Part shown: positions 1,199 through 29,465 of the stretch, piece after piece | Layout of the letters: each line of letters begins with the position of its first letter | How positions within the stretch are numbered: position 1 is the first letter of the stretch | Assembly (NCBI RefSeq): GCF_003018255.1 | Contig: NZ_CP027440.1 | Reading direction: 5' to 3' (one strand) | Source of the DNA: Escherichia coli | GTDB lineage: Bacteria; Pseudomonadota; Gammaproteobacteria; Enterobacterales; Enterobacteriaceae | DNA: 64,000 nt | The notes under the pieces: model-generated | Told to the model about the DNA's origin: nothing | The model's database searches: none | Seen by the model: only the letters and a program-made list of their open reading frames with translations | Position numbers and translations under genes: made by a program

Positions 1199-1424
1199 AA
1201 TCAAAATCGTCATTACAGAAATCCCAGCAATGACGCTCCTTTGATGCAGATACTCAATGAGCAGATCCAGTAACGCCAATTCTTCCTTTTCAGCCTTCAC
1301 AAATGCCGCCCACTTAAACAGAGCGGCATTTTTCCTCCCCGCAACATTCAATTCTGTTTTGCGTGCCTGCTCCAGATTTTGCGATGTTTTTTTGCCCAGC
1401 GCAGTGAGAACGTGAGATACTTAC

Positions 1425-1444
1425 AACTGTATATAAACACAGTT
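1425..1444. promoter_or_regulatory. LexA (SOS) box upstream of dinD
   Basis: aACTGTatataaacACAGtt fits CTGT-N8-ACAG, about 45 nt upstream of the dinD start. Confidence 0.85.
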
Positions 1445-1487: not shown

Positions 1488-2312
1488 ATGAACGAACATC
1501 ATCAACCTTTTGAAGAGATAAAGCTGATTAATGCAAACGGAGCAGAACAATGGTCAGCAAGGCAACTTGGAAAACTACTGGGTTATTCAGAGTATCGTCA
1601 CTTTATACCTGTATTAACGCGCGCCAAAGAAGCTTGTCTGAATAGTGGTCACACAATTGATGACCATTTCGAGGAGATCCTCGATATGGTCAAAATTGGC
1701 TCAAATGCCAAAAGAGCATTAAAAGACATCGTACTCTCCCGCTATGCCTGTTACCTGGTAGTACAAAACGGCGACCCTGCGAAACCGGTTATTGCGGCAG
1801 GGCAAACTTATTTTGCTATCCAGACCCGACGGCAGGAGCTGGCTGACGATGAAGCTTTCAGGCAACTTCGTGAAGACGAAAAGCGTCTTTTTCTGAGAAA
1901 TGAGTTGAAAGAACATAACAAACAATTAGTTGAGGCAGCGCAGCAAGCTGGGGTAGCGACAGCTATCGATTTCGCCATATTTCAGAATCATGGTTACCGG
2001 GGGCTGTATGGTGGATTAGATCAGAAAGCCATCCATCAGCGGAAGGGGCTGAAAAAGAGTCAGAAGATCCTGGATCATATGGGTTCAACAGAACTGGCGG
2101 CTAATCTCTTTCGAGCTACCCAAACAGAAGAAAAACTCAAGCGGGATGGCGTGAATTCAAAACAGCAAGCTAACACCACACACTTTGACGTGGGTCGCAA
2201 GGTGAGGCAAACCATTCAGGAACTTGGCGGAACCATGCCTGAGGAGTTGCCGACCCCGCAGGTCAACATCAAGCAGTTGGAAAACAGTGTAAAAATTACA
2301 GAGAAGAAATAG
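1488..2312 (+). CDS. dinD: DNA-damage-inducible protein D
   Basis: ORF (track 1476..2312); MNEHHQPFEEIKLINANG… matches DinD as I recall it; LexA box upstream; ATG at 1488 gives 274 aa. Confidence 0.85.
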   Translation: MNEHHQPFEEIKLINANGAEQWSARQLGKLLGYSEYRHFIPVLTRAKEACLNSGHTIDDHFEEILDMVKIGSNAKRALKDIVLSRYACYLVVQNGDPAKPVIAAGQTYFAIQTRRQELADDEAFRQLREDEKRLFLRNELKEHNKQLVEAAQQAGVATAIDFAIFQNHGYRGLYGGLDQKAIHQRKGLKKSQKILDHMGSTELAANLFRATQTEEKLKRDGVNSKQQANTTHFDVGRKVRQTIQELGGTMPEELPTPQVNIKQLENSVKITEKK

Positions 2313-27047: not shown

Positions 27048-27142
27048 GGAAGATCGTCGTCTCCGGTGAGGCGGCTGGACTTCAAATCCAGTTGGGGCCG
27101 CCAGCGGTCCCGGGCAGGTTCGACTCCTGTGATCTTCCGCCA
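27048..27142 (+). tRNA. selC: tRNA-Sec (selenocysteine)
   Basis: 95 nt GGAAGATCGTCGTCTCCGGTGAGGCGGCTGGACTTCAAATCCAG…TCGACTCCTGTGATCTTCCGCCA with UCA anticodon; TATAAT at 27011-27016. Confidence 0.97.
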
Positions 27143-27194
27143 AAATGCCTCTTCTGAACTCTCCCGACGTCAACAACACTCCTTCGGAGGCGAC

Positions 27195-28232
27195 ATGTCA
27201 GACAAAGACTTAACCCAGCCCCCAGCAGGCGAGTTTATTATGTTTGCCAGCGGTGACGGAAGAGTGCGTGTTGAATGTCGCTTTGAGTCAGACACAATCT
27301 GGTTATCCCAGGCGGCAATGGCTGAACTGTACGATAAAGATGTTCGCACTATTAACGAACATTTAATCAATATATTTTCCGAAGGTGAACTTGTTCAAAA
27401 CTCAACCATCCGGAAATTCCGGATAGTTCGCCAGGAAGGAAAACGTCAGGTTTCCAGAGAGATAGACCATTACAACCTCGAAGCCATTCTCGCTGTCGGC
27501 TATCGCGTTCGCTCGCCTCGAGGCACGCAATTCCGCCAGTGGGCCACCCAGACGCTTCAGGAATACCTGATCAAAGGTTTTGTGATGGACGATGAGCGGC
27601 TGAAGAATCCGCCTGTCGGTTCATCGGTTGTGCCCGACTATTTTGATGAGATGCTTGAACGCATCCGCGATATTCGCGCCAGCGAGCGTCGGGTATATTT
27701 GCGGGTGCGGGAGATCTTTGCTTTAGCTGCCGACTATCAGCCATCACTAAAAGAAACCACGCAATTTTTTCAAACCATCCAGAATAAACTGCATTTTGCC
27801 TGTACCGGGCATACCGCTGCGGAACTCATCCACAAACGAGCAGATGCCAGCCAGCCGCACATGGGCTTGACCAGTTATAAAGGTGAAGAGGTACGTAAGG
27901 GCGACGTGACGGTGGCAAAAAATTATCTCACCCAGGATGAGGTCAGCGAACTTAATCGCGTGGTTAATATGTGGCTGGACTTTGCCGAGGATCAGGCCCG
28001 TCGTCGTCAGCAAGTCTTTTTGCGCGACTGGCAGGATAAGCTGGATCAGTTCCTGCAATTTAACGACCGAGAGGTTCTACAGGGCGCTGGTAAAATCAGC
28101 AAGAAAATGGCCGATGAAAAAGCGCAGGCGGAGTATGTTCAGTTTGCCGAACAACAACGGCGCTTAAAAGAAGCCGAAGGCGAGAAGGATATCGCTGGTT
28201 TGCTACAGTGGAATAAAGAGTCGAAAAAGTAG
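27195..28232 (+). CDS. RhuM-family protein (selC-islet cargo)
   Basis: 345 aa from ATG 27195 with GGAGG RBS; N-terminus …EFIMFASGDGRVRVECRFESDTIWLSQAAMAELY… is typical of RhuM family; track ORF starts at a GTG inside selC. Confidence 0.75.
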   Translation: MSDKDLTQPPAGEFIMFASGDGRVRVECRFESDTIWLSQAAMAELYDKDVRTINEHLINIFSEGELVQNSTIRKFRIVRQEGKRQVSREIDHYNLEAILAVGYRVRSPRGTQFRQWATQTLQEYLIKGFVMDDERLKNPPVGSSVVPDYFDEMLERIRDIRASERRVYLRVREIFALAADYQPSLKETTQFFQTIQNKLHFACTGHTAAELIHKRADASQPHMGLTSYKGEEVRKGDVTVAKNYLTQDEVSELNRVVNMWLDFAEDQARRRQQVFLRDWQDKLDQFLQFNDREVLQGAGKISKKMADEKAQAEYVQFAEQQRRLKEAEGEKDIAGLLQWNKESKK

Positions 28233-28338
28233 CCCGGAATCCCCCCAAACGCCATACGCAAAACCATTTGGGGGTACTTATGGGGTTACTCATTTATCAA
28301 ATTCAAAATATAAACATTAAATCAATAACTTAACCATC

Positions 28339-28375
28339 AAATGCGACTCCTGTGATCGCCAAAATGCCTCTTCAG
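28339..28375 (+). repeat. Imperfect direct repeat of the selC 3' end plus flank (att-like scar)
   Basis: gcgactcctgtgatcgccaaaatgcctcttcagtga matches 27121-27158 apart from a 3-bp gap and about 2 mismatches. Confidence 0.7.
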
Positions 28376-28439
28376 TGATCCCCATCCTGCTTATTTCTGA
28401 GCAACCTGACCCTGCTGATGTATCTGGTAGTATGACAGA

Positions 28440-28661
28440 GTGATTCGTTTTTCTTGCCGAGTGTACGAAAACGTCTTCCTTGCCACCGACTATCAACCGT
28501 CACTCAAAAAAACCTCTCTTTTTTTCAAGCTATCAAGAATAAGTTGCATTTTATCTGCACCGGACACCAGCCATCCATATATGGCTTTTACCTGCTACAA
28601 AGATGAAGAAGTGCATAAATGTGATGTTAAAACAATCAAAGAAAAATTACATGCGCAATAA
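28440..28661 (+). pseudogene. Internal fragment of a second rhuM-like gene
   Basis: …FLATDYQPSLKKTSLFF…YMAFTCYKDEEVHKCDVKTIKEKL aligns to residues about 170-250 of the intact copy at roughly 70% nucleotide identity; no start or N-terminal domain. Confidence 0.65.
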
Positions 28662-28801
28662 TTTCACTATAACATTATAATCCATGGTGAAAATAACACT
28701 GCACAAGGATTGTCATCATCAAACTCATCGGAACTATTTTTTCTGTCGTCATTGGTGTAATACTGATTGTAAGTATCCTTTCAGGAGATTATTTTTGCCG
28801 T

Positions 28802-29299
28802 GTGGGGCATGGAACTTGTAAAGCAGCCAAAAGCGCTAGGCATTTAATTGAAAGTAAAGAGAAAAACAGAAGTAGTCGCGTCAAAGTCTTTAGCACGCAT
28901 ATTAATTTGAGTCATCCAGCGGCATCCTGGCTAGCAACTCAAACTTGCGCTAACAATATATTCAATCTACTTCAAAACAATAATGCCATTTATTTATTCG
29001 AAAACGATAATAAAATTGAACTGCGAATGGGGTATGATTCTTTTTTTTCTATTGAAACGATTGATAAAATTAACAAAGAAAACATCAAAGAAATAAAACT
29101 AAAAAATGAGACAACATATGTTTCTCTTCCTAATCCAACCATTTTAATAACCACGACATCAACACCTGAACGACAGTTTTCTATTTCTGTTCTGGATGAT
29201 GATAACAAAGAAAATCTACCTACCGATACCGCACCTTGTTTTACAATTGGTATTCCTGATGAATATACTAAAGCCATAGAGTTATTGAACATTAAATAA
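28802..29299 (+). CDS. Hypothetical protein in AT-rich DNA, no recognisable family
   Basis: 165-codon ORF from GTG in very low-GC sequence; no clear RBS; first in-frame ATG at 29027. Confidence 0.3.
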   Translation: MGHGTCKAAKSARHLIESKEKNRSSRVKVFSTHINLSHPAASWLATQTCANNIFNLLQNNNAIYLFENDNKIELRMGYDSFFSIETIDKINKENIKEIKLKNETTYVSLPNPTILITTTSTPERQFSISVLDDDNKENLPTDTAPCFTIGIPDEYTKAIELLNIK

Positions 29300-29465
29300 T
29301 TAAATTTCATATTGAGTTTTTTTAAATACCATATGAATAATTGTTATATGTCATTATTTCCTCCATTCACTAAAACTGATTGATTACTCTACTCCCTCAC
29401 CGTCATCGGTAGTGGTATCCTTAACGTATATTGATGAAAAGACAAAACAGTATGCAGAGGGAAAA

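Follow-up and report, generated by a model that had tools for sequence, protein, structure and literature searches.

Natural C14 form of the dinD LexA operator in an Escherichia coli genome, with modestly weaker LexA binding predicted than in K-12

The window, that is, the whole 64,000-nucleotide stretch of Escherichia coli contig NZ_CP027440.1 (assembly GCF_003018255.1) that was analysed, carries dinD near its 5' end, with the conserved synteny yicG-ligB-gmk-rpoZ-spoT on the 3' side of the gene. Positions 1-1269 are part of an integrated element inserted at the 3' end of yicC, and yicC itself is absent from the window. This part of the element includes the C-terminus of a Q-type antiterminator (1-146) and three ACGAAAATTTCGT palindromes (457, 578 and 818). 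The copy of the element in O145 RM9154 encodes Rha, GIY-YIG, Icd-like, primase, SSB and ProQ/FinO genes, three PerC-family genes and Q, a gene content that looks satellite- or PICI-like. Strain-specific deletions at the junction remove 1, 12 or 16 nt of the residual yicC tail. Part of the element is matched in 142/5426 genomes, and the matches that cover the first 6 kb of the window most fully are at most 98.2% identical. The dinD promoter region starts directly past the junction, position 1270 being 155 bp 5' of the LexA box of dinD; from 1270 on, the window aligns with the K-12 yicC-dinD intergenic region, and the offset of the box from dinD is equal in the two. The features of the locus are as follows, where HI is the Berg-von Hippel heterology index calculated from 18 K-12 boxes (PMC3009722 Table 4).

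About 1259-1270, plus strand: right (attR-like) junction of the integrated element, gagcagatcca joined to GTAACGCC (junction comparison; similarity to island-free E. coli from 1270).
1392-1397, plus strand: putative -35 element TTGCCC, 18 bp 5' of the putative -10, placed tentatively on a 4/6 match to TTGACA, with no tool support.
1413-1421, plus strand: putative extended -10 element TGaGATACT (by eye; motif conserved in distant homologues).
1425-1444, no strand assigned: LexA operator (SOS box) of dinD, AACTGTATATAAACACAGTT (19/20 identity and colinearity with the K-12 box; HI 2.65; enrichment over shuffles).
1427-1442, no strand assigned: CTGT-N8-ACAG core of the dinD box (sequence read).
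1438, plus strand: variant base C, T in K-12, at LexA-contacted operator position 14 (alignment; allele counts; PMC5999292).
1478-1481, plus strand: Shine-Dalgarno GGAG inside the conserved ribosome-binding block ACATGGAGTGrGCrATG, with 6 nt between it and the dinD ATG (sequence and homologue comparison).
1488-2312, plus strand: dinD coding sequence, 274 amino acids, Bro-N domain (tblastn; Pfam PF02498; RefSeq annotation).

Elsewhere in the window, a 7.3-kb insertion relative to K-12 lies between yicH and yicI (15765-23021) and encodes a lyxose-isomerase-like cupin, a ROK kinase, two class-II aldolases, PTS IIC/IIB/IIA components and a PRD/Mga-type regulator. We take this insertion to resemble the ExPEC-associated frz operon. 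The tRNA-Sec gene selC (27048-27142) is directly followed by a RhuM-family gene (27066-28229), and a 2.3-kb segment by selC (27048-29436) stands in place of K-12 yicT-setC. K-12 yidI and glvGBC-yidP are missing from the window, at ~47640 and ~51920, and a ROSE_2 RNA thermometer (RF01832, 96.6 bits) maps to the minus strand at 54819-54891 in the ibpA/ibpB region.

Read directly, the dinD box of the window and the orthologous site of K-12 MG1655, AACTGTATATAAATACAGTT (NC_000913.3 3817697-3817716; positions 2698-2717 of the K-12 locus L001), differ at one base within the box, a T-to-C change at window position 1438, which is operator position 14 (19/20 identical in alignment). The earlier note had claimed a one-base difference from the K-12 operator. 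This is borne out: the K-12 box given there is correct, as both the MG1655 sequence and the published list of LexA boxes (PMC3009722 Table 4) give it in that form, and the promoter alignment has T in K-12 where the window has C. Just outside the box, the window further has T at 1422 where K-12 has C, GT at 1445-1446 in place of AC, and C at 1450 in place of T. A LexA operator is described structurally as an inverted CTG/CAG pair exactly 10 bp apart in a 20-bp imperfect palindrome (PMC5999292). In the window, CTGT occupies 1427-1430 and ACAG 1439-1442, which places the inverted CTG and CAG motifs at this 10-bp spacing within such a palindrome, and 43 nt separate the box from the ATG at 1488 in both the window and K-12. 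The site is the orthologue of the K-12 dinD operator and has the structure of a LexA operator. Across the 64-kb window, ACTGTATNNNNNNACAGT with at most one mismatch matches twice, at the dinD box and at a tisB/istR box, against 0.14 matches expected from shuffles, and the same two sites are the only ones with HI < 7; the dinD box is therefore not a chance match. The tisB/istR box (TACTGTATAAATAAACAGTA, 44620-44639, minus strand, HI 0.74) is identical to its K-12 counterpart, and the istR sRNA (Rfam RF01400, 44440-44569) that adjoins it identifies the tisB/istR locus.

The dinD box begins 3 nt past the TGaGATACT motif. A strict sigma-70 consensus scan of the dinD upstream region returned no promoter, and no mapped dinD transcription start was found in the literature searched, including PMC2577331. 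The upstream regions of the Pectobacterium and Salmonella dinD homologues are unalignable save for two islands, GAAyGTGrGATAyT, at equal distance from the start codon, and ACATGGAGTGrGCrATG. Placement of the putative promoter is supported by this conservation, because TGnGATAyT is kept upstream of dinD in distant homologues. With this layout, transcription would putatively start near 1428, within the box, and the substitution at 1438 would fall near transcript position +10, away from the core elements of the promoter. On inspection of the sequence, no Dam, Dcm or EcoKI site and no -10 hexamer is gained or lost through the substitution. The box palindrome was called 'terminator-like' by the consensus scan, which was taken as a false positive from the dyad symmetry of the operator.

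The DinD protein of the window is 100% identical to that of JNE23-011 and 97.8% identical to that of K-12 (tblastn). Two dinD coding alleles occur in E. coli (region 1517-2312; clusters of 882 and 1467 members), at ~97-100% vs ~84% amino acid identity to the window. The two share one promoter and part at a recombination breakpoint ~30 nt past the start of the gene. In many genomes (B2, O157:H7) the match to the window ends at ~1520; the window dinD belongs to the K-12-like class. Homologues with 75-83% identity are widespread in other genera (loci L124, L125/L126, L129 and L127), often beside mobile-element genes (integrase, AbiEii, DUF927/DUF4224). Those of Pectobacterium, Salmonella and the Yersinia-like type lack a LexA box, their best sites having an HI of at least 17.9. 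The motif GAAyGTGrGATAyT is common to these copies, and some carry a TGTGGGATA-N4-TATCATACA palindrome, which suggests that the box-less homologues may answer to a different regulator. The Yersinia-like copy is syntenic (dinD-yicG-ligB), and the Citrobacter copy is flanked by ibpB and yidE and has a box of its own, CACTGTAAAAATATCCAGTA. A contig end in a metagenome-assembled genome labelled 'uncultured Lentisphaeria' (L070, CAJMAW010000127.1) carries a dinD promoter of the E. coli K-12 type together with codons 1-43 of the gene, and differs from K-12 by one base over ~130 bp upstream of the start codon; this fragment is most likely E. coli contamination.

Promoter alleles were typed across 5426 complete E. 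coli genomes by means of 30-mers in which each 28-base megablast seed spans both 1422 and 1438. The haplotype of the window (1422T, 1438C) occurs in 214 genomes and that of K-12 (1422C, 1438T) in 3348, while 1422T with 1438T is found in 12 and 1422C with 1438C in 806, Nissle 1917 and NU14 among them. The dinD region was matched in 4705 genomes, ~325 of which fall outside the four typed haplotypes. C14 is thus present in at least 1020/5426 genomes (~19% of all, 23% of the 4380 typed) and T14 in at least 3360. With 214 + 806 genomes carrying C against 3348 + 12 carrying T, C14 is a segregating polymorphism: a common natural allele outside K-12-like lineages. A sequencing or assembly error, or a mutation private to the source isolate, is a prior possibility for any single-base difference and has nothing further in its favour here. 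The identical 30-mer recurs in 214 genomes, the 20-mer with the K-type upstream flank is present in 806 more, and JNE23-011 is 100% identical to the window over 381 bp; these observations refute that reading, to which we assign practically no probability.

Haplotype sampling resolved two families of dinD promoter. One, represented by the window and JNE23-011, IHE3034 and SWHEFF_58, has 1401G-1404G-1438C-1445G-1446T-1450C-1459C, and the other, represented by K-12, O157:H7, OkiPb01678 and O145 RM9154, has A-C-T-A-C-T-T at those seven positions. C14 is also found on a K-type background in FDAARGOS_497, which brings the promoter backgrounds that carry it to at least three: that of the window and JNE23-011, that of IHE3034 and SWHEFF_58, and the K-type one of FDAARGOS_497. 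Its occurrence on the K-type background implies that the substitution has recombined or arisen more than once. The island-bearing genomes OkiPb01678 and O145 RM9154 have T14 at the dinD promoter, and the island junction and the promoter haplotype of the window were found together in no sampled genome. A scan of species-representative genomes with AACTGTATATAAANACAGTT gave at least 120 matches, mainly to generic LexA boxes in taxa such as Vibrio, Pseudoalteromonas and Shewanella. No Escherichia outgroup that could polarise T14/C14 was among the 80 titled loci of the 120 matches listed, and a cluster-member lookup for outgroups returned E. coli and Shigella names only. The dinD promoters of other genera were set aside for this purpose, the Pectobacterium, Salmonella and Yersinia-like copies having no LexA box and the Citrobacter copy lying at another locus with a different box.

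Predicted binding strength was compared by HI under four schemes. The K-12 and window dinD boxes score 2.14 and 2.65 with all 18 boxes, 2.95 and 3.32 with dinD left out of the matrix, 3.09 and 4.70 with a symmetrised half-site matrix, and 3.73 and 5.24 with a symmetrised matrix and dinD left out. In all schemes of this scoring with a LexA matrix, proposed in the earlier note as a check, the window box outranks those of recA, sulA and lexA and stands far above dinB and polB; its HI is also better than those of the yebG and dinI boxes. In published work, functional LexA boxes span HI values of ~1.8 to ~13, and the K-12 dinD box, with an HI of 2.2, is associated with 9.8-fold induction by AZT and 12-fold lexA dependence (PMC11228462). 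The window box (2.65, 3.32, 4.70) lies inside that range. Scoring of 25-mers with flanks penalised the GT flank of the window and was given no weight (17 sequences; positions outside the listed contacts 14-18). C14 occurs in four native K-12 boxes (lexA box 1, yebG, uvrD and polB), and in lexA, yebG and polB it is accompanied by A15. Among the 120 matches to AACTGTATATAAANACAGTT listed from the genomes of other species, the free base is T in 50, A in 45, C in 20 and G in 5; judged from these counts, C at position 14 is tolerated and less favoured than T or A. From the matrix estimates, which suggest a ~1.5- to ~5-fold effect, C14 would weaken LexA binding.

The behaviour of position 14 has been measured on a consensus operator, in which all sixteen combinations of residues 14 and 15 were assayed for LexA dissociation and in-vivo promoter activity (Culyba 2018; PMC5999292). 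LexA contacts the bases at residues 14-18, five per half-site, and residue 15 outweighs residue 14 (PMC5999292). The series falls into two groups by residue 15 (A/C vs T/G), of which A or C favours slower dissociation; half-lives range over 1.9-492 s, and peak promoter activity can be predicted from the half-life of dissociation (r = -0.99; PMC5999292). Irrespective of residue 15, LexA holds T14 more tightly than any other base, G being the weakest, a preference ascribed to the thymine methyl in a hydrophobic pocket of LexA (PMC5999292). Position 14 is not a neutral spacer, because it is contacted by LexA and T14 binds tighter than C14 (PMC5999292). By class, the K-12 dinD operator is 'TA' and that of the window 'CA', and the latter, since it keeps A15 and CAG, still belongs with the slowly dissociating operators. 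The earlier note had reasoned that the conserved half-sites are intact and that LexA binding should therefore be preserved. The expectation stands, given the conserved spacing, an HI of 2.65 vs 2.14 and the C14-A15 pair in lexA, yebG and polB, although the argument from intact half-sites is too simple for a position that LexA contacts and at which T is held more tightly than C (PMC5999292). LexA binding at the C14 box is predicted to be preserved and modestly weaker than at the K-12 box.

We consider it probable (roughly 0.85) that the window carries the dinD LexA operator in a natural C14 form that is functional and, by prediction, modestly weaker than that of K-12. This reading draws on the sequence, orthology, allele frequencies and matrix scores obtained here, and takes the direction of the position-14 effect from published work on other operators; how the promoter is laid out, and how dinD expression would change in the source strain, are parts that we infer. 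A LexA dimer would bind the CTGT-N8-ACAG palindrome, which directly follows the probable extended -10 and covers what is probably the transcription start, and would there block initiation at dinD or promoter escape. After DNA damage, RecA-stimulated self-cleavage of LexA would release dinD transcription. With C14, one half-site would lose the thymine methyl contact, so that LexA would leave somewhat faster than from the K-12 box, and dinD might be slightly leakier, with slightly earlier or stronger induction, from a box that would still be among the stronger of the regulon. The flank differences at 1422, 1445-1446 and 1450, which vary together with C14 in most carriers, could shift promoter strength independently, and the integrated element that ends 155 bp 5' of the box could add read-through transcription into dinD.

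Two other readings give the substitution a larger role. That it disables the operator and leaves dinD free of LexA control in the source strain would agree with a contacted position at which T is preferred (PMC5999292), yet neither of the CTG/CAG motifs is altered, nor is A15, the HI is far below those of the functional weak boxes dinB and polB (published 9.4 and 13; PMC11228462), C14-A15 is present in the functional K-12 lexA, yebG and polB operators, and the same pair falls in the slower-dissociating synthetic group (PMC5999292); we regard loss of control as very improbable. It is somewhat less improbable, and still unlikely, that T14/C14 is an adaptively tuned, lineage-specific knob, with B2, the lineage of the window and related lineages keeping a faster-releasing dinD operator, and hence earlier or higher levels of DinD, a modulator of RecA filaments, and K-12-like lineages keeping the tighter T14. 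Such tuning would amount to cis-regulatory micro-evolution within the SOS timing hierarchy. C14 is frequent and tied to lineage, and position 14 alters both the LexA off-rate and peak in-vivo activity in a reporter system (PMC5999292), while the C14 of FDAARGOS_497 fits recurrent mutation and a short recombination tract alike. However, no sign of selection is seen in the present data, the predicted effect of C14 is small, and C14 is linked with several neutral-looking SNPs in a dinD region that is ~94.5% identical between lineages, as in ordinary divergence.

Natural variation of a functional operator, the reading that we prefer, matters little in itself, as this SOS box is a textbook example of LexA binding and its variant already stands on record as a frequent allele in more than 1000 public genomes. 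It does show that K-12 operator sequences are not to be assumed for all E. coli. Since LexA contacts position 14 and the base there has been measured to influence the off-rate, SNPs of this kind could yield differences between strains in the timing of SOS genes, and the T14/C14 pair would be a handy natural case on which to test the off-rate model of that timing.

Three kinds of known operator can be set beside that of the window. The K-12 dinD (pcsA) operator, AACTGTATATAAATACAGTT, is orthologous to it, lies at an equal distance from the ATG in the same flanking promoter region, and has identical CTGT/ACAG motifs and A15. The window differs from it in that C14 loses the inner A7:T14 symmetry, whereas the outer dyad (ACAACTGT...ACAGTTGT) is lengthened by the flank SNPs at 1422, 1445-1446 and 1450, and in that the integrated element takes the place of yicC upstream. 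The synthetic 'CA' operator (PMC5999292) carries the T14-to-C substitution at the same position with A15 kept, and provides the only direct experimental information on this substitution for LexA dissociation and promoter output; it is otherwise a perfect consensus within the recA promoter, whereas the dinD box is also off consensus at positions 1, 12 and 20. The native K-12 C14-A15 operators, lexA box 1 (TGCTGTATATACTCACAGCA), yebG (TACTGTATAAAATCACAGTT) and polB (GACTGTATAAAACCACAGCC), share the right half-site CACAG with the window and belong to LexA-regulated genes, and they deviate from consensus at more positions and are weaker overall than the dinD box of the window.
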